Below are positions 40,000 through 62,846 of a stretch of DNA of 64,000 nucleotides, in pieces. How positions within the stretch are numbered: the first letter of the stretch is position 1; each line of letters starts with the position of its first letter. The stretch lies in assembly GCA_913055805.1 (NCBI GenBank), contig CAJXLF010000006.1, positions 1,735 to 65,734 of the forward strand. The letters run 5' to 3'. The translations under genes were made by a program, and so were the position numbers. The notes under the pieces were generated by a model that was given only the letters and a program-made list of their open reading frames with translations, made no database searches and was not told the DNA's origin. Source of the DNA: an uncultured Salinisphaerales bacterium (GTDB taxonomy: Bacteria; Pseudomonadota; Gammaproteobacteria; Nevskiales; CAJXLF01).

Positions 40000-42900
40000 T
40001 TATGCCACGTATTTAAACTCTTGAATAGCGGCTTGATACGACTTTTCGATTTCGGCTCTCTGATCTGCCTGCTTTATAGAGTCATGATCAACTCTGCGTT
40101 CCCCCCAAATAACCACACTCAATTCAAGTCCACGTTTCTGTAAATAGTTAGCTAACACTGACTTTCGGATAAAAAGAAAGTCCACACGATTTCGCCAGTT
40201 CTCCCCTTCTGAGAGATACAAAGTGGCTAATCTACCGTTTTTATCCCGTAGATTTATAGATCGCCCAAAACTTACCAGGGATTCCGAATCACAAAGCCAA
40301 GGAGAGGGAAAAGTAAAACCGCTATAATCGTTTACTGTTGAATGATATGACTCCCAAGAAAATGGCCAGCGAAAGGACTCAGCTTCAATACTATTCACAG
40401 TGCGCCATCCCTCGTTGTCCTGATATCCAGACTTAAGTTCCTTCAAGGCAGGTACTTGATGCAATATTTCGTACAACGAAAGTCTTTGATCTCGAGGAAC
40501 TTCCTGATTAACCCGTTCTAGTTCACGGATAACCAGACTTAACGCCTTTTCCCTACCTGTCTCAGTGCGAGCCCGGTGGTATTTCAACAATACCGAATAG
40601 TCGAATAAGAACCAGGTCTTCCGTAGGCGAATTTTGGTTTTAAATCGCTGATGAGATCCAAAAAGCCTATGCATTGGGTTCACGAGCTTCCCGGAATGGG
40701 TTCTCATTTCTGCTGCGAATCTTTTACTCCACCCTACCTCGCCCGCATATGCATAATGATCCCCTCTAACATCTGGCAGTTCTCCCCCAGCATTAGTGGC
40801 GTTTATAAACGCGGCACTAAATCGCTCAGATTCTTCCGGACGAATTCCTAGAGCCCTAATTACAGTGAAGATGCTTAGCCCCGAACTTTCGTCTTCTTCC
40901 CAAATATCCCCGTCCACAAGTACCCAAGGTCCTCGGTGGCCTCCGATTGCGGGAACTTCTAGGATTGAGTCATAACTCGGAATAGGGCCGTTTTGTAGCC
41001 AACCAAGAGGACTATAGTGGTGAGTTTCAGAACCGATTGTTCGCTGATATGTTGGGAGCGGAAATTTCTCAGGAACCGGAAAACTTGGGTCTATATCGCA
41101 ATCACTAGAGCGTTCGAAACCGTCATCTATTAATTTATGGGCTTGACGATATCCATACATTTCAAAATACGCAATCCAGCAGTATTTCTTTCCGTACCTG
41201 TCTACCTTATCGCCACCTTCTCGCCGCCAATTAATCCGTCCGATCATACTGTCAATATCTGAAAACACTTTTTCATCGTAGCCGAGCTCTATGACACGCC
41301 ACTCTATCTGATTACGCACGTCCTGATAGATCGGATGTTTCATATCATAGTTACTACGATCGGGTATCAGTCTACCAAGCGTGTAATTCTCAAAGTCCAT
41401 CATCATAACCCGCTTGGTCTTTTCCTTAATGGAGCCTGAAATTGCACTCGGATTTGGGAAGGGGTTATCAATCGCCGGATACGGGGCTTTCAAATATCTT
41501 TTGCACCCTCGAGGCACCAAACTTGGGTCAAATTTTTGTGCTAACTCGATAATCCCAAGTGCGTAATCACGCATTAATACATGGTGAGTATGGGCCCGCC
41601 CTCCAGGAAGGAACCATTCCTTAACAAGCCATTTTGCTAAGGTAACCAAATATCCTCCAAACCGCTTTCCAGGGCGAATCGCATATTTACTCATTGCCAC
41701 TCCGAAACAAGCAGCAAGAACTCGCTCGCGAACATATGGGTCATCAATATCGAGAGTAACGTGCATAAAATCAAAAAGAGCTCTGGGTTGCAGCTCTCCT
41801 ACTAAGACTAGTGCTTTAGTAGCTCTGTCTCTTAGCCGCCGATCAGTTGTGGTCAGGAACGAAGAAAGGACAGCCACCACGTTTATAGCTGTGTCGAACT
41901 TCAGATTGTTTATCAATCCACTTTCGTAAAATGCAACAATGCGCTCAACGGCTGAACCAGAATCATGGTGATAGCGTATATATTCGCTCCAAGTGCAATC
42001 TCTCCTCTGCATTGAGACTCGTGCTAGATTTCGCATCAAACGCATGCCGCAATAAGGATGCCGAGGTTTAGTGGCCATTGAAACAAGAGCCTCTGAAGCG
42101 GCCCTCTGCCACGTATCGTGCGAACTCCAAAAATATCCGCCTAAAACCTGGTCAGTTTGCTTACTAATAGAAAAGGGGGATCGCCAGATCAGGCCTCGAA
42201 TAAACGGATCAAAATACGCCTGGAAATCACGCGCACGCTTTGGGAGATAAAAGAATAACTCACGTGCATCTTGGGGTAGGCATTTCTTAGTGTATTCAGG
42301 GAACTCAAGAATGATCGCTTCCGCCCAATTTTCTGTGTCGAATCGTGGATAAAATTCACTACTTACGCGAAATATTTTTCCGAGAGGTTGATTCGCGTAG
42401 AAACTGCGACGGATAGAATTCGCGTCGCGAGTGTTGAGATGCTCTCTCAGTAAGTATCTAGCGACTATATGATCACTAAAGCGCTGATAAGGCATGCCAA
42501 CAACATGTAGGGAGCCACCATCATCATCAGGGCGCCAAAGTTGGTTCTCAACCAATACCCCTTCTCGCACCAATAATCTCAGTAGCAACTTCGCTCGATG
42601 CAAGGAACTGATTTCTGGACGTGCTCTAAAAATTTCTAACGTTTTCTTATATGGGACCCATTCGGTTAGATGATGTCCCATGTAACTCGCCAGCCCAGAT
42701 AATTCAGGATCATTTATTGACTTTTTCCCCTTAAGCGCATCCCAGCAAAATTTCGCTGGCAGTCCCATTTCCCTTTCTATTGCCTTAGTACGCTCGAACA
42801 CAAAATGTTCAAGGATGAATGTCATACCTTTCTGGCCAGAAGATATGCCATGGAATCCTTTGCGTTGATCCTTTCTCGGGAGTGACTGGTATGCCTGACA

Positions 42901-44070
42901 GAGAATCTTCAACGTAAGTGGCCGTGAGAATTCATCAGCCAAGAGCGGTACTTCTGGAAGCGGAATGCCGTAAAAGTTAAAAAATTCTCTTTGGGCATCG
43001 AATTCGATATCGTAAAAACCAACGTGTTTGAGATGCACCATCCGCTTACGCGAACTATCCGGCACAATTGTTCTATCAAACGGTTCTCGGCAGCTTACTA
43101 CCAACCCCACATGGGAGTACCCTTTGACGGCAGTAATAAGCTTGGGGACGTCACGTTTCCAAGCTACTGGATCCGATTCATTTATGCCATCTATTAGAAT
43201 CAAACCTCTATACCCTGCTTCCTGACCCATCCGGTCAATGATCTGGATCAAGTCATCAAATGAATTTGCCAAACCCGTAAATTTGGCAAGCTCATCTCCA
43301 CAGGATCCCGCCGGGTCAAAGTCCTTCGCTAATACCACCAAAGATGGTGCCCCATTAGCTGTAAACCGCTTAGCTAGGTCACAAAGGAAATGGGTTTTCC
43401 CCGTGCCCCACTCGCCCGTTAGCATTGCCACCTGGCCAAAACGCAACCGGATCTCTGAGGAATCAAAAAACTCTTTCAGATATCGAACCTCAGAAGATGT
43501 GCGATATAACTGGCTCGAGCGAGATCGTAGGGACTCCAAAACTCGATCTTCCCTATCAGGCGTCTTGCCTCCAGCAGAATTCGTTTTCTCTCTGTCGATC
43601 TCAGCTTTACGTTTATCTATTTTTTCATTGACCTGAGTAATCTCCGATCCTAGGATCTCCCCGATCCGGTCCGCTGCCCTTATTATTTTTTGAACGATCA
43701 CGCGCCCTTCATCGACGGGCTGCTCGCTCATTTCCTTAATTAACTTCGACACGCGATTTGAATATCGCTCAGCTCGTTTTTTACCATCTAGAGCAGACAC
43801 ACACTCAGACATCGCCTTTTCAAACTCATCAAGAACCTGGAGTACTCGGCTCTTGAATTGCTCGTTAACAGCGAGCCCATTCATTGCATTCAGTAATTCA
43901 CCTATTTCCAAGTTTGGCGAATCAGCATCAATACCAGGTGTGTACCTAGGCCCTGCGCTATTTACGGTTCGCTTATTAATTCTGCGTATTCTTTCAATCA
44001 TCTTTGCCGCTACTTGGTTGTTATTTCGAGTTCCCTGCCTCAATAACAAACCGAGCGAGAGAGTGCACAC
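40000..44070 (-). CDS. Giant (about 1330-1356 aa) orphan P-loop NTPase, STAND/KAP-like
   Basis: Walker A is LTGEWGTGKTHF (about nt 43393-43416). Walker B is GLILIDGINES (about nt 43174-43203). It has a charged coiled-coil N-terminus and a roughly 1000-aa C-terminal region with HEAT-like helices. It is low-GC. The start may be GTG 44070 or ATG 44001. Confidence 0.75.
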   Translation of the reverse strand: MCTLSLGLLLRQGTRNNNQVAAKMIERIRRINKRTVNSAGPRYTPGIDADSPNLEIGELLNAMNGLAVNEQFKSRVLQVLDEFEKAMSECVSALDGKKRAERYSNRVSKLIKEMSEQPVDEGRVIVQKIIRAADRIGEILGSEITQVNEKIDKRKAEIDREKTNSAGGKTPDREDRVLESLRSRSSQLYRTSSEVRYLKEFFDSSEIRLRFGQVAMLTGEWGTGKTHFLCDLAKRFTANGAPSLVVLAKDFDPAGSCGDELAKFTGLANSFDDLIQIIDRMGQEAGYRGLILIDGINESDPVAWKRDVPKLITAVKGYSHVGLVVSCREPFDRTIVPDSSRKRMVHLKHVGFYDIEFDAQREFFNFYGIPLPEVPLLADEFSRPLTLKILCQAYQSLPRKDQRKGFHGISSGQKGMTFILEHFVFERTKAIEREMGLPAKFCWDALKGKKSINDPELSGLASYMGHHLTEWVPYKKTLEIFRARPEISSLHRAKLLLRLLVREGVLVENQLWRPDDDGGSLHVVGMPYQRFSDHIVARYLLREHLNTRDANSIRRSFYANQPLGKIFRVSSEFYPRFDTENWAEAIILEFPEYTKKCLPQDARELFFYLPKRARDFQAYFDPFIRGLIWRSPFSISKQTDQVLGGYFWSSHDTWQRAASEALVSMATKPRHPYCGMRLMRNLARVSMQRRDCTWSEYIRYHHDSGSAVERIVAFYESGLINNLKFDTAINVVAVLSSFLTTTDRRLRDRATKALVLVGELQPRALFDFMHVTLDIDDPYVRERVLAACFGVAMSKYAIRPGKRFGGYLVTLAKWLVKEWFLPGGRAHTHHVLMRDYALGIIELAQKFDPSLVPRGCKRYLKAPYPAIDNPFPNPSAISGSIKEKTKRVMMMDFENYTLGRLIPDRSNYDMKHPIYQDVRNQIEWRVIELGYDEKVFSDIDSMIGRINWRREGGDKVDRYGKKYCWIAYFEMYGYRQAHKLIDDGFERSSDCDIDPSFPVPEKFPLPTYQRTIGSETHHYSPLGWLQNGPIPSYDSILEVPAIGGHRGPWVLVDGDIWEEDESSGLSIFTVIRALGIRPEESERFSAAFINATNAGGELPDVRGDHYAYAGEVGWSKRFAAEMRTHSGKLVNPMHRLFGSHQRFKTKIRLRKTWFLFDYSVLLKYHRARTETGREKALSLVIRELERVNQEVPRDQRLSLYEILHQVPALKELKSGYQDNEGWRTVNSIEAESFRWPFSWESYHSTVNDYSGFTFPSPWLCDSESLVSFGRSINLRDKNGRLATLYLSEGENWRNRVDFLFIRKSVLANYLQKRGLELSVVIWGERRVDHDSIKQADQRAEIEKSYQAAIQEFKYVA

Positions 44071-56302: not shown

Positions 56303-58378
56303 TTAGTCTCGATTTTGGGGCTCACCGAAAAAGTCAACGTACGCTTTTCTATCAAAACTAATATGAATATGTGTGCCATTGGGCTTATTGTCGTATGTGA
56401 CTCTCTTCAGTTCACCGCCATAATAAAATGATAGACGTCGCCCAACACCCCATTGTTGCTCCACATCGCTGCCAGAATCTTTTCCCTCTCGCTGATTTAA
56501 TTTAGAGGCAAGAAGAGCCTTGTCTTCATGCACCGCGCCGGGAGTAACACTTTGCCGAGTATCCCCAATATCCGATGTACGTTCCTCAACAATGACCATG
56601 TATAAATCACCTAACGACTCCGAGATTTTTTTTGCGTCGTTATGTCTAACGCTCGGCAAAACAGCCTCTACCTTTACGGGCTCGGGGTTAGTGAATGGGG
56701 CGGGAACCGCTACGGAAGGAACTTCGACCTTTTGAGCCATATGAACGAAGTCAACCCCTCCACGCAAGGAATGATTTCCGGAAGGATCATCTTTAGGGTC
56801 TCGCTTTGCTGAGGTAATCTGATAATTCTCGTTGGCTAACTTTTCTCGCATCTTCTTTTCAATTTCTGCTCTCAAATTTTTATCAATTTCTGATTTCTTC
56901 GCGTTAACAACTTGTTGCTCTTCCCATCTTTTTTTTTCATTTTCATCGCGCAAGCGTTTCGCTTTTTCCTCGCGCGCCCTGGCTTCTTGTTCTTCGTACA
57001 GACGCTGGCGTTTTCTCTCCTCTTCTACTGACCCATAATATTTGCAATGAGCCATACATCGATCTGCTTTTGCAATCGATAATTCCGAATCGACTCGTCC
57101 TTTGTGACATGGCTCAAAAATCCCATAGTAGCTATCCCGAAAGCCATAACATGAAGTTGATAACTTCTGACGTAGAGCTGATATCTTCTCTACAGGACAA
57201 CTAGCGGCCACTGATGAAGCCACACGATTCCTACATTCGGTGCCATACGGTTCGAGCATGTTCCAGCATCTACCAAAGGGCAGCCCATCAACGTAAACCG
57301 TATTCCTCATTGGGAAGGAACGATGCTGATCAGTTGGTTGTCTTGGTGAATCGGCCGCACAAAATTTGAAATATATATCTGGACTAATGTAGGCCCTATC
57401 ACAAAGATCATTTATTACGCGTTTTTGCAGGCTATCATCTTTCGAATTTCGCCTCTGCTTATCGTCACCACGCGCTCCTGGTGTTCTCTCTGAATATTGC
57501 TGAATAACAAATCTCGACAAATCCTCAAAACACGATGGTGTAGACCATTGCTTTTCCGCCTTGTATCCGAAAGCCGACCGATAAGTTAAAAACCGCATGT
57601 CTTGAGATGGTTCAATCTCAGGAATTGCCCAGGCCACAAGCGAGAACGCGGCATCTAAGGACTCCCCCGTTAACAACCGTCCTACACAAGAAATATCATT
57701 GCAATAATGCTCAAAATCACGCTTACCTAGCTTTGATGACAACTCTCGATCGACAATATTAACTGCTTCTTGAAACGTTCTTATACTTCTTGCCGACGTT
57801 GGATCATCGAAAAATTCAAGCTCCCGATTATCAAAAAGTTGAGGTAGCCAATCTGCCTGAGAAGTTACAGGCACGCCATCTAAAGCATCAAGCCGAAGCC
57901 AGTCAATCGCAAGCGAAGCAGGAGAAAGCCCTAACCCCATATCAGTTGCTGAAAATTTAAGAGTGTTTTGGCATGTGTTAGGTAGAAGCTTATTTAGCTC
58001 ATCTTCCAAGGTCCGTTCACGTAGCACCACGAATGCATTAAACCAAATACGAAATGCTGTTAGACCCAAGTCACTCTTCAAATCAAATCCACCTCGGGTC
58101 TCACGCGCGATAGCATGTGCAGCTTTAACAATGGTTGCTTCACGAACTGCTTTTTCGCACGGAGTCAATGGCTTTGATGGCTGCTCTAAAAGGTCAAATG
58201 CCAAAACTTTAGTGGATATTCCAGAGGCAACTAAAATAAAGAGGAAACATCCCAACCAGCCTTTCATATGCTTCGGTTTATTCATGTATGCAGAAGCACA
58301 ATGTTTATAAGTTCGTTTCTTAGTAAACAGATTACCCTGTCCGGCGAATCTAACACCCAGATCTTCTGATTCGGACAT
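56303..58378 (-). CDS. 691-aa membrane-anchored Cys-rich protein with an E/K/R-rich coiled coil, unknown function
   Basis: It has a GGGAGAA SD before ATG 58378 and one TM or signal anchor (WLGCFLFILVASGISTKVLA). A charged stretch reads EEERKRQRLYEEQEARAREEKAKRLRDENEKKRWEE. It is low-GC. Confidence 0.6.
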   Translation of the reverse strand: MSESEDLGVRFAGQGNLFTKKRTYKHCASAYMNKPKHMKGWLGCFLFILVASGISTKVLAFDLLEQPSKPLTPCEKAVREATIVKAAHAIARETRGGFDLKSDLGLTAFRIWFNAFVVLRERTLEDELNKLLPNTCQNTLKFSATDMGLGLSPASLAIDWLRLDALDGVPVTSQADWLPQLFDNRELEFFDDPTSARSIRTFQEAVNIVDRELSSKLGKRDFEHYCNDISCVGRLLTGESLDAAFSLVAWAIPEIEPSQDMRFLTYRSAFGYKAEKQWSTPSCFEDLSRFVIQQYSERTPGARGDDKQRRNSKDDSLQKRVINDLCDRAYISPDIYFKFCAADSPRQPTDQHRSFPMRNTVYVDGLPFGRCWNMLEPYGTECRNRVASSVAASCPVEKISALRQKLSTSCYGFRDSYYGIFEPCHKGRVDSELSIAKADRCMAHCKYYGSVEEERKRQRLYEEQEARAREEKAKRLRDENEKKRWEEQQVVNAKKSEIDKNLRAEIEKKMREKLANENYQITSAKRDPKDDPSGNHSLRGGVDFVHMAQKVEVPSVAVPAPFTNPEPVKVEAVLPSVRHNDAKKISESLGDLYMVIVEERTSDIGDTRQSVTPGAVHEDKALLASKLNQREGKDSGSDVEQQWGVGRRLSFYYGGELKRVTYDNKPNGTHIHISFDRKAYVDFFGEPQNRD

Positions 58379-58597
58379 CGTTATTCTCCCAGCCCACCCG
58401 AGAAACGATTTTCACTCCGAGCATGGGCGTTATCAACTGGATGTATGAACCGGAGCGTATGGCTATTAGCTCAGACGCTTCAATTAAATACTTATTGCAG
58501 TAATCTAATTTGATCGATTTGGCGTTTCTGCAAAACAGATATGTGTCAAAATTTCACACCGTAAGGCACGACACACGAACGCGCTCGGGCCAGGCAA

Positions 58598-58650
58598 GGG
58601 CCCCAGTTTTAGCCCCATAGGGGCGATCGCCAAAGGCGAAAAACTGGGCC
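58598..58650 (+). repeat. GC-rich nested-hairpin element, unit A
   Basis: The outer stem is CCCAGTTTT/AAAACTGGG. It encloses the hairpins GCCCC-ata-GGGGC and TCGCC-aaa-GGCGA. Confidence 0.65.
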
Positions 58651-58690
58651 TGGCGCAGCGCATAAATCCGCCGCAATGGATCACGAAACG

Positions 58691-58740
58691 GGCCCCGATT
58701 TTAGGCCGCAGGCCGTTCGCCCAAGGGCGAAAAATTGGGT
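58691..58740 (+). repeat. GC-rich nested-hairpin element, unit B
   Basis: The outer stem is CCCGATTTT/AAAATTGGG, with one G:T wobble and one compensatory change relative to unit A. It encloses GGCC-gca-GGCC and TCGCCC-aa-GGGCGA. Confidence 0.65.
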
Positions 58741-58910
58741 CGTGATCGCGGCGACAAACGCGACGAAACGAAGTGCAGGAGCGGCCGCCCGCCCCGTCCC
58801 GGGGCTGCCCTGGTTTGCGGGGCCGACCGCGCGGCCTAGCGCGGCGGAGTCCGAGGGCCCCCAGGCCCGGAGGACCCATGAGAACCGAAGCCCGAAAACG
58901 AGCAGGTACG

Positions 58911-58986
58911 GGCCCCGAACTGTCCGCCAACGGCGGCAGTTTGGGCCTGCGAGTTTCGGGTCCGCCCGCAGGGCGGAGTTCGAAAT
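58911..58986 (+). repeat. GC-rich nested-hairpin elements, units C and D
   Basis: Unit C has the outer stem CCCGAACTG/CAGTTTGGG, with a G:T at the same position as unit B, around CCGCC-aac-GGCGG. Unit D has TTTCG/CGAAA around TCCGCCC-gca-GGGCGGA. Confidence 0.6.
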
Positions 58987-59200
58987 GGCCCGCGAAGCGG
59001 GGCAGCCGCGGAACGCGGCGGGCGGCGCAAGGTCCGACAGGACCGCGCAGGCGAGCATGCTCGCCGAAGTCTTACAGACGAAGCAAATCACTGATTTGCA
59101 AGGCATCTAAGTTAGCGAGCACGGCTCGCGTGGCGCCAGAAAGGGGTGCTGTCGCCGGGGTAACCACCCTACTACTGCCACGCCTATGCCACGTCAGCGC

Positions 59201-59244
59201 CGGGGTGTGGTGCCGGTGTGGCTGTAGACGAGGTGCGGGTGTGG
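59201..59244 (+). repeat. Iteron-like direct repeats C(G)GGTGTGG x3
   Basis: The copies are at 59201-59210, 59213-59221 and 59236-59244, directly upstream of the SD and ATG at 59256. Opposite-sense CCACNNC motifs lie at 59164, 59178 and 59189. Confidence 0.35.
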
Positions 59245-59255
59245 AGGATTTAACG

Positions 59256-60191
59256 ATGCAAGAGCAATCTCACTGGGACCATCTGCCGGAAGACCTGGAA
59301 GAAGAATTGGTGGCCGAGTTGTCGATGCGCGAGCTTCTCGAAATGGAGCAACCAGAACCAACTCCCCCACCGCCGAACGCCGGCGTCGCAGACAAGCGCT
59401 GGGGTGGCAACAAGGCCCGAGTACGAGGGCGAAAAAAGACGCAAACTCTGTTGGGCCACTTAGGCAGCTTCGGGGTTATTGACGAGCCGGTGATAGAGCG
59501 CTTACTCGGGATCAGCAATCGGTCAGCGAGGCGTACTCTCGATAACATGGTCGAGCGTAAACTAATCAGGCACGAACCCGCTGATTCCTGTCGTCAGAAA
59601 CTTTATCACTTGACGCCCTTCGGCCGTCGCCAGGCACAAGGTTACCAAGACGAACTTTACCAGGAAATGACCCTACCAACTTCACCATCCCGGATCAGGC
59701 ATGGCCAGGCATGTCATGACTTGTTGTGCGGACTCCTGGCCGTGGAGCTGGCGTCCGAACTGGACGGCACAATTTATTCCGCAGCCGAACTCGATCACCA
59801 GGGCAGCGGCTACGGATTTGATGGAAGTAGAACACCCGATTTTCGCATCGATTTCACAGATGCCGACGACATCGACAGAACCGTCATTGTGGAACTCGAA
59901 CAGGAGCGCAAAGACCACGACCTGATCCGCCGAATCCTAAGTGGATACTCGGCCAACCATACCGCCGGCCGAATCCATGAATTGCGTATCTATTCGACTC
60001 GCAAGTCGTCCCTATCGGGTTGGAAAAAAGTCCTCAGCCAGCGCGGCTACGCATACTTCTGGAACGATGATCATAAACGTTGGTATCGGAACGAAATTGA
60101 GGACGATCCGATGACCGATGACTTTCGTAAGTCAGTGAAAATTATACTTCTACAGAAGCGCTATCACGGGTTGTATTACTACGGTCCGTGA
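59256..60191 (+). CDS. Replication-relaxation family-like protein (wHTH plus PD-(D/E)xK-like C-terminus)
   Basis: ORF 58773..60191, trimmed to ATG 59256 (GGAGGA SD) because the upstream part is the GC-rich non-coding block. It has the wHTH VIERLLGISNRSARRTLDNMVERKLI. It also has HGQACHDLL and TPDFRIDF...VIVELEQ. Confidence 0.5.
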   Translation: MQEQSHWDHLPEDLEEELVAELSMRELLEMEQPEPTPPPPNAGVADKRWGGNKARVRGRKKTQTLLGHLGSFGVIDEPVIERLLGISNRSARRTLDNMVERKLIRHEPADSCRQKLYHLTPFGRRQAQGYQDELYQEMTLPTSPSRIRHGQACHDLLCGLLAVELASELDGTIYSAAELDHQGSGYGFDGSRTPDFRIDFTDADDIDRTVIVELEQERKDHDLIRRILSGYSANHTAGRIHELRIYSTRKSSLSGWKKVLSQRGYAYFWNDDHKRWYRNEIEDDPMTDDFRKSVKIILLQKRYHGLYYYGP

Positions 60192-60266: not shown

Positions 60267-62846
60267 TCAGTAGTTCGAAGCAGCCTCACTCCTGTAAAGC
60301 TGTTCAGCTTCGCTAGCTGAGCGAACAGCATCGCGTACTTTCTGGTCCATCAAGTCCAGAACACGAAGCTGGTTATCAACTTCGCCAATCGATTCGATAC
60401 GGTGGAACTCGCCCCCAAAGGCTTCAACAAAATCTGCCAGGCCTCGAAGCTTCGGCAAGGCATCGCTTAGATGGGTTCCATGTGGATCCACGATGGACAC
60501 CTTTACGTCCTCATCTTTGCCGTGGAAGAAAATGAAATCCGGACACATGCGCCGCCAGTTCTCGTTGTCATCCTGCCAAGCTACAGCCAGCGCATCTTCC
60601 GAGGCTCGCGATGGGTTGCGATACCAGGCCAGGCAATCACCACGGCCCAGCTCCTTGTCCAGCACAGCCAACTCCCATGAATTGAGTCCGCCGACCGGGA
60701 ATTGCCCCTGCTTATCGGACATCAGGTGCAAGGCACGTGTGGCCAGTAGCTTGCCCTGCTCATCCATGGTGCTCTCAGAACGTACACGCGGTCGTTGTAG
60801 CTCTATCTTCTGAGGTTGGGGCGACATAGCCTTGATCTCGGAATAAACAGCTCGGCGCACGTCTGACAAGTCCATTATCTTCACGCGGTACTTATCAAAC
60901 CACTGACTCGCCAGATCGCTGGCTTCCGCCTCAATCTTATCCACAACTGGGGCCAACCCCTGTATATCCATCTTACCGATGGCCGCTACTCTAATGTGAG
61001 CGTCGTAAAGGGTATCGTCGTCATCAGGGTCGGCCAGATGATCAGCGTAACGTTTGGCCAGTTCCGGGCCAAGAATCCGCCCCGCTGTCCGGTAATCGGC
61101 ATCGACGGCCAACTCGTCTGCCCTTTCGGAGAAATGCTCCTCGTCAGCTACATGACCATCGACCACATTCACTCTGCGTGTTATGCCAGAGACTTCCTGG
61201 ACATCCTTTTCGGCCTGCTCGAGTTTCTCGGGGTACCTCTTACACAGCGCATCCAGCACCTTACAAAGTTCACCGTAGGCCTCATTCACAGCTCCCTTGC
61301 GTAGTCCATCGCGCGACAACGCCTGTGCTAAGGCCGTGTAGCGCGAAACCGCCTTGGCGGCTTTGCGTGGCAGGGTATGCGAGGGCAAGTTGTCAAAGAC
61401 AGTCCACACGGCTTCTGGAATCGCCGGGTTGACTTCCATATCAAGCGGTGCGGTCAGCACGCGCCTCCCTTCCCCGCCACCTGACCCGGAGTTATCGTGC
61501 TGGCTATCGCCGGTCATGGCTCTAGCCACTTCGGTCGCCGTGTTTTCGTTAAACTTGGGCAGAACGCAAGTCACGGAATTCAGTAGATCATTGCCTGGTA
61601 TGCGCCGTGCCAGCGGAGTGCGCACCATGCGACCAAGTAGTTGGGTGATATAAGTCACATCCTGTGCGGACCGAAACGACACGAACACTTCCGCGCGCGG
61701 GCAATCCCAGCCAGTTGAAATCGCATCCTTGGCCAGCAGAACCCGGATATGTGTCTGGTCTTGCACCATCTGCGGACGTATATAGCACGCGGTATACCCG
61801 CCAACTTCAATATCCGCATGCTCGCCAAAAACATGGGCCACAGCATCGGCAGACAGCTCCGGCCATTCGCTGGTGATCGCCTGGAACACGGCCAGCAAGT
61901 CGGCGTCCGTGGGTTTGTTCGGCATCTGCACCACCATCAGTGGCGTAACAGCATCTTCCCCTTGTCCTTCAACGTAGTTTTGCCACAGCTCCGTGGATTC
62001 ACGCAGCAGACGGGTTGCCCGCCTGAGCAGCGAAGTGTCAAAGACACCGACCTCGGCCGGAAAATCCAGGCGGATGTCGTCTTTCAAAAGGCCGGACTCC
62101 TGCACCCGTGCCGGATCCACCACCACATTGGGATATTTCACCCGGTTCGGGGTATTACGCATGGCCGTGTCGAAGCGCTCAACGGTGGCGGAAATACCCC
62201 AGACAACAGGCACGGGCGGCATGCCGTTCACACCGTTTATCAGCTTCTGGACGATGGTTGCACGCTCCTTGTTCGCCTTCATCCCCCTATGTGCTTCATC
62301 GAGAATCAGGTACAGCGTGAGATTTTGGTCTTCAATGGTGTTGCGCAGAATGTCCCACATGCTATGGGCGCGATTATCCGGTGGTGGCATACCGGCCAGC
62401 GGTTGCTGAGGGTCGTCTTCTTCACCGCCCTCGGCGCCACGCACCAACAAGGCACTCTTGCTGAGCTTCTGGGCATTAAGAAAATACACCTTGCCCGGTT
62501 CCAGCTTATCTTGGTTGAATGGATAATCGATAACGACCAGCCGCGAATGCGAAATCTTGTCGGCGGCATCCATCAATTTGAAGCGCGTCTGCTCGTTTAG
62601 TGACGGATCATCGGTAAACCACAGCACCACAGCGCCAGGATCGGCTTCAAAGTTGTGTTCGGGATTGCCGTCGAACAGGGCCTCAATGGCGGCAGCGGCC
62701 ATGACGGTCTTCCCCGCACCCGTAGTCGCCGTGAGGGAAAAAGCCACCGGACGATTCTTGCGCTGCCAAGCGTCGCGGGCGTCGCGCAGATTGTCCAACA
62801 CATCGGCGACCGCATCCTCCTGATAATCTTTGAGCGTGTAACGCAT
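60267..62846 (-). CDS. Type III restriction Res-like SF2 helicase-nuclease
   Basis: Helicase motifs are TATTGAGKT, LILDEAHRG, ISAT and QLLGRMVRTP. The C-terminal nuclease-like region is CPDFIFF...VSIVDPHG. The start overlaps the Mod stop (TGATG). Confidence 0.7.
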   Translation of the reverse strand: MRYTLKDYQEDAVADVLDNLRDARDAWQRKNRPVAFSLTATTGAGKTVMAAAAIEALFDGNPEHNFEADPGAVVLWFTDDPSLNEQTRFKLMDAADKISHSRLVVIDYPFNQDKLEPGKVYFLNAQKLSKSALLVRGAEGGEEDDPQQPLAGMPPPDNRAHSMWDILRNTIEDQNLTLYLILDEAHRGMKANKERATIVQKLINGVNGMPPVPVVWGISATVERFDTAMRNTPNRVKYPNVVVDPARVQESGLLKDDIRLDFPAEVGVFDTSLLRRATRLLRESTELWQNYVEGQGEDAVTPLMVVQMPNKPTDADLLAVFQAITSEWPELSADAVAHVFGEHADIEVGGYTACYIRPQMVQDQTHIRVLLAKDAISTGWDCPRAEVFVSFRSAQDVTYITQLLGRMVRTPLARRIPGNDLLNSVTCVLPKFNENTATEVARAMTGDSQHDNSGSGGGEGRRVLTAPLDMEVNPAIPEAVWTVFDNLPSHTLPRKAAKAVSRYTALAQALSRDGLRKGAVNEAYGELCKVLDALCKRYPEKLEQAEKDVQEVSGITRRVNVVDGHVADEEHFSERADELAVDADYRTAGRILGPELAKRYADHLADPDDDDTLYDAHIRVAAIGKMDIQGLAPVVDKIEAEASDLASQWFDKYRVKIMDLSDVRRAVYSEIKAMSPQPQKIELQRPRVRSESTMDEQGKLLATRALHLMSDKQGQFPVGGLNSWELAVLDKELGRGDCLAWYRNPSRASEDALAVAWQDDNENWRRMCPDFIFFHGKDEDVKVSIVDPHGTHLSDALPKLRGLADFVEAFGGEFHRIESIGEVDNQLRVLDLMDQKVRDAVRSASEAEQLYRSEAASNY

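Follow-up and report, generated by a model that had tools for sequence, protein, structure and literature searches.

A large covarying hairpin block upstream of MobC-like genes, a candidate single-stranded DNA cis-element of integrative mobilizable elements

The 64,000-nucleotide stretch of DNA analysed here (the window; positions 1,735 to 65,734 of contig CAJXLF010000006.1 from an uncultured Salinisphaerales bacterium) carries a GC-rich, non-coding block of hairpins of approximately 600 nucleotides (nt) on its plus strand, from about 58565 to about 59180, directly 5′ of a gene for a 311-residue MobC-like protein. The block is conserved in related loci, its helices covary, it folds preferentially on one strand, it carries DNA-type loop motifs and it is linked to the MobC-like gene. 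We are therefore highly confident that the block functions as a strand-specific structured element and that it belongs with the MobC-like module. As to its nature, we favour, at a probability of about 0.5, a single-stranded DNA (ssDNA) cis-element of integrative mobilizable elements, that is, a hairpin array associated with an origin of transfer (oriT) or a single-strand origin or initiation site (sso/ssi-like). The choice between RNA and ssDNA that an initial annotation of the window had posed is thereby narrowed, not settled.

The hairpin block takes up most of the 877 bp (58379–59255) between two divergent genes, a 691-residue gene on the minus strand (56303–58378) and the 311-residue gene on the plus strand (59256–60191). 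Direct reading located all of the hairpins, the palindrome and the GGGCCCC(A/G) units that the initial annotation had listed; only its transcription needed correction, because it had omitted one or two unpaired linker bases between sub-hairpins. Its view that the ORFs of the block are non-coding also held, as none of the six-frame open reading frames (ORFs) matched Pfam, and the concatenated six-frame translations found no relative among 5.8 billion protein clusters. With RNA parameters, the plus strand folded at −344.7 kcal/mol (z = −8.5 versus shuffled sequence) and the minus strand at −327.1 kcal/mol (z = −6.7); DNA parameters predicted the same plus-strand fold at −196.2 kcal/mol (z = −6.9). 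Beyond what had been annotated, we found P1 helices and 7-nt bulges, a 38-nt long-range repeat, wider block limits and direct repeats at 59153–59244.

Related loci were taken from the contigs of remote HMMER relatives of the 311-residue protein, and the block was assessed where the upstream DNA sufficed. A block lay directly 5′ of the MobC-like gene and on the same strand in 8/8 loci (the window, L107, L108, L112, L114, L116, L118 and L120). The seven relatives' blocks are 600–800 nt long, 65–77% G+C and hairpin-rich, and the distance from the end of the block to the MobC-like start codon is about 75–125 nt in the window and similar in the relatives (about 80–150 nt over the 8 loci). Over 463 nt, the block of the window matches that of L112 at 83.4% identity (approximately 70% in units A and B, described below), with similarity that begins abruptly at the first helix, whereas their MobC-like proteins share 31% identity and their rep genes belong to different families. 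Other pairs of blocks are 69% (L107 and L120, over 511 nt), 66% (L114 and L120, 490 nt) and 73% identical (L114 and L118, 164 nt), and the short islands CCCTGGTTTGCGGG, CCCCGCGAAGCGGGG and GCCGCCGAAGGCGGC recur in most of them. Because the block is conserved far above the adjacent protein and independently of the rep gene type, it behaves as sso cassettes do.

The 5′ part of the block and its third domain contain the three homologous units recognized by the initial annotation, whose GGGCCCC(A/G) starts fall at 58598, 58690 and 58910; GGGCCCC itself occurs five times within the 64 kb, four of them inside the block. The units are nested, 49–69 nt long (P1 to P1′) and all in direct orientation on the plus strand. 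Each consists of a P1 helix, a 7-nt 5′ bulge (N-A-N-GGGC), a 9-bp CCC/GGG helix (P2, the outer stem of the initial annotation) and one or two apical mini-hairpins; the P1 sequence is wholly different among the three. The compensatory change reported between units was confirmed at P2 position 5 (G-C in unit A, A-T in units B and C), as was the G:T pair at position 4 of units B and C. A covariance model of the unit, R1, was built with no training units other than A and B from the window and from L112; its matches are given with the features below.

58565–58664, plus strand: unit A, extended hairpin (R1, 79 bits)
58581–85 with 58657–61, plus strand: unit A, P0
58589–94 with 58649–54, plus strand: unit A, P1, GCCAGG/CCTGGC
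58595–58601, plus strand: unit A, 5′ bulge CAAGGGC
58602–10 with 58640–48, plus strand: unit A, P2, CCCAGTTTT/AAAACTGGG
Within unit A, plus strand: apical hairpins GCCCC-ATA-GGGGC and TCGCC-AAA-GGCGA
58666–58756, plus strand: unit B (R1, 82 bits)
58669–74 with 58748–53, plus strand: unit B, P0
58679–86 with 58740–47, plus strand: unit B, P1, GATCACGA/TCGTGATC
58687–93, plus strand: unit B, 5′ bulge AACGGGC
58694–702 with 58731–39, plus strand: unit B, P2, CCCGATTTT/AAAATTGGG, G:T at position 4
Within unit B, plus strand: apical hairpins GGCC-GCA-GGCC and TCGCC-CAAG-GGCGA
58891–58960, plus strand: unit C, within domain 3 (R1, E = 2e-4, outside the training set)
Within unit C, plus strand: P0, CCCG-A-AAAC with GTTT-CGGG
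58902–06 with 58946–50, plus strand: unit C, P1, GCAGG/CCTGC
58907–13, plus strand: unit C, 5′ bulge TACGGGC
58914–22 with 58937–45, plus strand: unit C, P2, CCCGAACTG/CAGTTTGGG, G:T at position 4
Within unit C, plus strand: single apical hairpin CCGCC-AAC-GGCGG

Comparison of the window with L112 revealed replacement of paired bases on both sides of the helices. The P1 helix of unit B differs by four double changes (GATCACGA/TCGTGATC to ACACGCGA/TCGCGTGT), a C:G pair of P0 is flipped to G:C, apical hairpins are replaced by other hairpins, and one hairpin stem is shortened by one base on each side. Further changes of this kind are GGGCC-CCCA-GGCCC to GGCGC-CCCA-GCGCC, GTCC/GGAC to GTAC/GTAC, and GCAAATCA/TGATTTGC to GAAAATCA/TGATTTTC. 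In the RNAalifold structure of the two blocks, 11 of the 164 pairs are changed on both sides and 6 carry single changes of the G:U type. The R1 model recovered unit C in both the window and L112, together with units in L118 (two), L107 (four), L108, L114 (two) and L120, all of its matches lying inside blocks and on the plus strand. In the resulting 13-unit alignment, which was fitted to R1 and is thus biased towards the structure, 94.3% of the cells are paired, compared with 66.0% in shuffles and 30–48% with the partners slid, and the covariation score of 0.587 (0.167 in shuffles) was reached by 0/500 shuffles. Seven of the eight P1 pairs show double changes, and the bulge follows a G-C closing pair with the consensus T-A-N-G-G-G-N.

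The same data bear on the possibility that the block acts as duplex, as a double-stranded protein-binding array (iterons, centromere or operators) whose TA-N-GGGCCCC(R) repeats and palindromes are bound by winged-helix, partition or replication proteins. Three direct copies of a conserved 11–12-bp motif, operator-like palindromes at 59050–65 and 59083–99, short phased repeats beside the gene, and KfrA and ParA genes in some relatives would suit such an array. However, P1, P0 and the long-range stems stay paired despite full replacement of their sequences, which duplex sites do not do; the G:T pairs make the strands unequal in 6/6 loci; and the block persists where Rep and Par genes vary or are absent. 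We regard a duplex array as very unlikely.

Downstream of units A and B, the block continues with a linker, a 243-nt multibranch domain (domain 3), further hairpins and a gene-proximal segment.

58762–58775, plus strand: linker GACGAAACGAAGTG, the same sequence in L112, predicted to be mostly unpaired
58784–59026, plus strand: domain 3, multibranch, 243 nt, 89.5% identity to L112
58808–22, plus strand: CCCTGGTTTGCGGGG, conserved, in domain 3
Within domain 3, plus strand: hairpin GGGCC-CCCA-GGCCC
58961–77, plus strand: domain 3 hairpin TCCGCCC-GCA-GGGCGGA
58989–59001, plus strand: domain 3 hairpin CCCGC-GAA-GCGGG
59005–19, plus strand: domain 3 hairpin GCCGCG-GAA-CGCGGC
59031–59044, plus strand: hairpin GGTCC-GACA-GGACC
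59050–59065, plus strand: 16-nt perfect palindrome GGCGAGCATGCTCGCC
59083–59099, plus strand: conserved 3′ hairpin GCAAATCA-C-TGATTTGC, with a C:G to A:T compensatory change in L112
59115–59129, plus strand: conserved 3′ hairpin GCGAGC-ACG-GCTCGC
59153 and 59198, plus strand: direct repeat CGCCGGGGT, two copies spaced 45 nt
59162–59177, plus strand: AACCACCCTACTACTG, 16-nt unpaired stretch, the same sequence in L112
59204, 59215 and 59238, plus strand: direct repeat GGTGTGG, three copies spaced 11 and 23 nt
59256–60191, plus strand: 311-residue MobC-like gene, with a GGAGG Shine–Dalgarno sequence 8 nt upstream of the ATG

Domain 3 is closed by a helix formed from a 38-nt long-range inverted repeat (58784–58821 with 58989–59026). 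L107 and L120 both retain this helix even though their domains 3 are only 55% identical; of 75 pairs, 18 differ by compensatory changes and 7 on one side. Homologues thus conserve the pairing, as the initial annotation had suggested checking: this was seen in the unit alignment, between the window and L112, and between L107 and L120. Each arm of the closing helix also has a local alternative, CCCCG-TCC-CGGGG and CCC-TGGTTTGC-GGG for the 5′ arm, and CCCGC-GAA-GCGGG and GCCGCG-GAA-CGCGGC for the 3′ arm; the long-range and local foldings are mutually exclusive conformations and could form a switch.

Closer to the gene, conserved and variable parts alternate. Segment 59031–59065 has 31% identity to L112, where another hairpin stands in its place, while L108 retains GGCGAGCATGTCTCGCT. 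The unpaired stretch AACCACCCTACTACTG is a candidate recognition or nick region. The direct repeats (59153–59244) lie just upstream of the Shine–Dalgarno sequence of the 311-residue gene; no such repeats were found in the 170 nt before the MobC-like gene in most relatives, and those of the window could be specificity determinants for the diverged winged helix of this copy.

The initial annotation had also offered host repetitive extragenic palindromic sequences or bacterial interspersed mosaic elements (REP/BIME) as an explanation. GC-rich imperfect palindromes in intergenic DNA, and the breaking of several assemblies within the block, are what a cluster of REP/BIME-like or miniature inverted-repeat transposable element (MITE)-like selfish palindromes of the host or donor genome could produce. 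The unit motif and R1 were found nowhere outside blocks, however, either in the 64-kb window (40 kb of it from the host) or across the related loci, 170 kb in all, and searches of plasmids, phages and viral contigs gave no match (for plasmids and phages, blastn of the block returned nothing even at E ≤ 10). The units are all direct and on one strand, the palindromes are not of the alternating 20–40-nt type, and there is no GTAG-type REP head, flanking target duplication or terminal inverted repeat. We reject this explanation, which now appears extremely improbable, because the DNA searched holds no further copy of the unit and the block has a constant syntenic position, always 5′ of a MobC-like gene.

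Folding of the block is strand-specific. The gene-sense (plus) strand is more stable than its complement by 16–82 kcal/mol in 6/6 loci, which, with the pairing kept in homologues, bears out the plus-strand-specific, folded non-coding element proposed by the initial annotation. Since the wobble pairs would be A:C mismatches on the opposite strand, the plus strand is the functional one. Tri-loops dominate its hairpins, GNRA accounts for 2/19 tetraloops, and UNCG is nearly absent. The plus strands of the eight blocks together hold 42 copies of a mini-hairpin motif, XY-C-GNA-G-Y′X′ (7.7 per kb), exact GCGAAGC and CCGAAGG among them, and the minus strands hold 9; against a background of 0.31 per kb, the plus-strand enrichment is approximately 25-fold. 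Mini-hairpins of the GCGNAGC type have extraordinary stability as DNA and much lower stability as RNA, and single-stranded DNA-binding protein (SSB) binds them poorly; they are found at the primase sites of G4, St-1 and alpha3, at RSF1010 ssiA (as CCGAAGG) and in the ssDNA promoters of N4 (PMC13037366).

The gene next to the block encodes a distant MobC/Replic_Relax (MOB_C-like) protein with a winged helix and a nuclease-like domain of putative PD-(D/E)xK type. A word-indexed search gave no close relatives, but a full HMMER search of 1.84 billion representatives revealed 26 remote ones of 223–336 residues and 23–32% identity. The NCBIfam model NF041423 (MobC_subf, 'MobC family replication-relaxation protein') matched 21/21 aligned members (best E = 2e-18), and Pfam Replic_Relax matched 11/21. 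Replic_Relax (PF13814) corresponds to the relaxase domain of MOB_C (PMC5357655); it is a member of the PD-(D/E)XK superfamily and is in most cases joined to a helix-turn-helix (PMC3424549). A confident AlphaFold (AF2) model built on the family alignment (pLDDT 86) comprises a MarR-like winged helix followed by an alpha/beta domain, and Foldseek matched it to MarR proteins with probability 1.0. H154, D155, D195 and E213 are invariant in the family alignment, and E215 is present in the window protein; D195, E213 and E215 would match the metal-binding 'DEE' motif reported in MOB_C (PMC6736028) and may be catalytic. An N-terminal extension of the gene was rejected given the strong Shine–Dalgarno sequence and ATG at 59256 and the lack of homology in the extension.

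Homologues of this protein were sought more widely. Neither tblastn of the window protein and of P0004 against plasmids nor searches of metagenome loci with a family alignment or with the 472-residue read-through ORF returned anything, and viral contigs likewise gave nothing. Among GTDB genomes, the search found a single remnant, a truncated MobC-like sequence (residues 102–278) at 2880–4590 of L100, a Hydrocarboniphaga metagenome-assembled genome; it lies approximately 1.1 kb from a tRNA gene, has no hairpin block and appears to be a decayed island.

How an ssDNA element might work can be outlined from these features. The oriT2 site of pAD1 reportedly contains a large inverted repeat. TraX, the MOB_C relaxase of pAD1, binds five direct repeats 70–120 bp from the nic site (PMC12857230), and by analogy the MobC-like nuclease could, after excision of the element, bind the gene-proximal DNA through its winged helix and nick the plus strand 3′ of the hairpin array. 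Nicking and unwinding, for transfer or rolling-circle copying, would let the gene-sense strand fold; the displaced plus strand would depart led by the MobC-like gene, with the block at its trailing end. There the block would then fold into GC-rich mini-hairpins resistant to SSB, bulged Y-shaped units with T-A-N-G-G-G beside the CCC/GGG helix, and the large closed domain. The folded strand would serve as an oriT-associated recognition or termination structure, as a priming site for the complementary strand, or as both, and may recruit a conserved, probably host-encoded, priming activity. An orientation-specific, stem-loop-rich sso stands beside the relaxase gene of ICEBs1 as well (PMC4595007).

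Several points weigh against the ssDNA reading. The window protein scores 20.8 bits (E = 2e-4) against MobC_subf, for which the curated cut-off is 200, and 20.7 bits against Replic_Relax (PF13814), below the cut-off of 25.3; the Foldseek match of its model to the restriction endonuclease EcoO109I is weak (probability 0.69). The family hidden Markov model (HMM) found no match among the six-frame ORFs of CloDF13, for which the PLSDB gene table lists neither mobB nor mobC. No nic site was identified, the length of 600–800 nt exceeds that of known oriT or sso elements, the GGTGTGG and CGCCGGGGT repeats are seen solely in the window copy and not in the 83%-identical L112 block, and no integrase, type IV coupling protein or type IV secretion system is visible in the window's island. 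Two further observations fit RNA. Two neighbouring P2 positions are most often G:U, with approximately 10% wobble among paired cells, a pattern found more typically in RNA than in DNA hairpins; and the block lies on the coding-sense strand at all loci, which a 5′ leader RNA would equally predict.

Alternatively, transcription together with or ahead of the MobC-like gene might yield a large structured RNA from the block, which would then be a long 5′ leader or a non-coding RNA released by processing. A protein, such as the MobC-like protein or one of the host, would bind its repeated bulged hairpins, and mobilization would in this way be regulated or assisted. We hold this as the main, if tentative, alternative. 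The shared strand in 8/8 loci with the block ending shortly before the start codon, the tandem G:U pairs conserved in P2 (16–32 G:U per block on the plus strand), plus-strand loops rich in purines and in A, the fold z-score given above and the strong covariation all suit it, and there is a precedent in SGI1, whose mobilization needs a self-encoded small RNA (sRNA) located between a relaxase-like gene and oriT (PMC9299015). On the other hand, the near absence of GNRA and UNCG tetraloops and the 25-fold enrichment of DNA-type C(GNA)G mini-hairpins speak against RNA, as does the Rfam check proposed with the initial annotation: no Rfam 15 family matched the window or the seven related loci at the gathering threshold, and a search extended to E ≤ 10 gave no meaningful match (best sub-threshold E = 1.3). 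Neither a sigma-70-like promoter 5′ of the block on the plus strand nor an intrinsic terminator was found in the window or L112; the L112 similarity starts at the first helix, with no conserved promoter upstream of it, and the block (83% nt identity) is much better conserved than the protein it would regulate (31% amino-acid identity). A more specific proposal, that the block represents a new class of large (600–800 nt) structured RNA acting as a relaxosome component or regulator with a MOB_C-like nuclease and made up of three-way-junction units in several copies, with a conserved T-A-N-G-G-G bulge and tandem G.U pairs, seems to us less likely than not.

The ssDNA reading can be compared with known systems. 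Like the sso of rolling-circle plasmids and sso1 of ICEBs1, the block is non-coding, strand- or orientation-specific in structure, rich in stem-loops and located beside a nickase or relaxase gene, and it forms a cassette common to elements with unrelated replication genes (PMC4595007). Unlike them, it is 2–4 times longer, very GC-rich and located in integrative elements, with no detectable sequence similarity to known elements and no −35/−10 mimic or CS-6-type motif seen in it. Its many one-strand C(GNA)G tri-loop hairpins resemble those of the G4, St-1 and alpha3 origins, RSF1010 ssiA/ssiB and the N4 virion RNA polymerase promoters, where such hairpins on ssDNA withstand SSB and show where priming or transcription begins (PMC13037366), but those signals are 40–140 nt long with 1–3 hairpins, whereas the block has 10–19 hairpins, repeated bulged units and a closed multibranch domain. 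As at the MOB_C oriT sites compared here (pAD1 oriT2/TraX and CloDF13 MobC; PMC12857230, PMC6736028), the block adjoins a Replic_Relax/MobC-type gene, combines a conserved hairpin part with a variable gene-proximal part and, in the window, has inverted repeats and short phased direct repeats of the kind that TraX binds; it differs in being much larger and more GC-rich, in the protein scoring below family cut-offs and in relatives lacking direct repeats.

Resemblances extend to two further groups. With the large RNAs OLE, GOLLD, ROOL and HEARO and the SGI1 sgm-sRNA (PMC9299015) the block shares its size class, an association with mobile elements and strong covariation; unlike them, it has no Rfam match, few GNRA loops and a beads-on-a-string arrangement of hairpins, and it is known from its DNA sequence. 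The comparison with telomeres is one of fold. In the archetypal telomeres of Streptomyces linear replicons, priming proteins are recruited by GC-rich palindromes of ssDNA that carry GCA-type tri-loops and Y-shaped junctions, and these fold-backs sit at physical DNA ends, in Actinobacteria. The block has the GC-rich palindromes, GCA-type tri-loops and Y-junctions in common with them but is internal, in an island of a 61% G+C host.

The surroundings of the block are those of a genomic island. Bases 1–40000 of the window are host DNA of approximately 61% G+C, and an island of lower G+C extends from 40000 to approximately 67900 (about 28 kb; its end lies past the window, in L102), with host genes beyond. 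Host sulfatase/FGE genes border it on one side and DUF2064, YjbQ, LOG, HSP20 and ClpB genes on the other. Two of its cargo genes have the following positions.

40000–44070: Avs2 (PADLOC, E = 3e-162)
60267–62846: type III restriction subunit (Res), with Mod also present

Other cargo includes SRAP, Mrr, a CoiA_N protein, GNAT, UmuD/UmuC and a truncated gene combining Replicase, PriCT_1 and a helix-turn-helix. The divergent 691-residue protein (56303–58378, minus strand) is an orphan of 44% G+C that has a hydrophobic segment at its N terminus and a coiled-coil region rich in Lys and Glu. It had no Pfam or PADLOC match, a word-indexed search gave no close relative, and its sole database match was a fragment of itself. 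In relatives, the neighbours include a P4-type integrase, RepA_C, RPA, DUF3987 or Toprim+AAA_25 replication genes, AlpA, KfrA and ParA, which mark integrative, plasmid-like mobilizable elements. Homologous blocks stand beside four replication types (Replicase/PriCT, RepA_C, RPA and DUF3987); in the Toprim+AAA_25 locus, L105, the contig ends 230 bp upstream of the MobC-like gene and no block is visible. Five independent assemblies stop inside the block, at 58772 (L104), 58784 (L004), 58785 (L103), 58938 (L006) and 58976 (L005), and the contigs of relatives L105, L106, L109–L111, L115 and L116 also end at their block. These breaks reflect either poor coverage of GC-rich hairpins or the most conserved domain being common to several elements in one community.

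Other identities were considered and rejected. An integron attC site lacks support, as there are no R″/R′ boxes (RYYYAAC/GTTRRRY) at the unit ends and no integrase in the island. Retron, defence-associated reverse transcriptase (DRT) and type III toxin–antitoxin RNAs were dismissed because no reverse transcriptase or ToxN-like gene is present, an invertible segment because there is no recombinase and the contig breakpoints overlap, and an att site because flanking repeats are missing. Scans of IMG/VR DNA with unit-derived patterns gave chance matches only, for example collagen-like GGGCCC repeats. A tandem-hairpin pattern scan found one unrelated AT-rich IMG/VR contig, L117 (1106 nt), which at 594–635 has the same tandem pair, CCCCGC-GAA-GCGGGG and GCCGCC-GTTA-GGCGGC, along with many other C-GAA-G mini-hairpins, and may be an unrelated ssDNA replicon using the same hairpin type. 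Intergenic TTTTAGGGGCC repeats at 270–420 of L077, a 187-kb viral contig, superficially resemble the start of the unit, a resemblance that we judged to be due to chance.

Together, the blocks make up a family of large structured cis-elements, not catalogued before, that belongs to integrative mobilizable elements. The conversion of ssDNA to duplex after conjugation is essentially unknown for integrative elements, and the sso of ICEBs1 is the only characterized one of an integrative and conjugative element (PMC4595007). MOB_C is the least understood relaxase family, for which no covalent intermediate has been detected (PMC12857230, PMC6736028), and PDB searches yielded no solved MOB_C structure. 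The block provides a concrete, clonable candidate cis site for a MobC-like system, with a repeated recognition motif that can be mutated; if it acts as RNA instead, the large ornate RNAs would gain a new member with a link to DNA transfer. The block, at which short-read assemblies break, also offers a marker for defence- and cargo-carrying islands that current annotation leaves blank.

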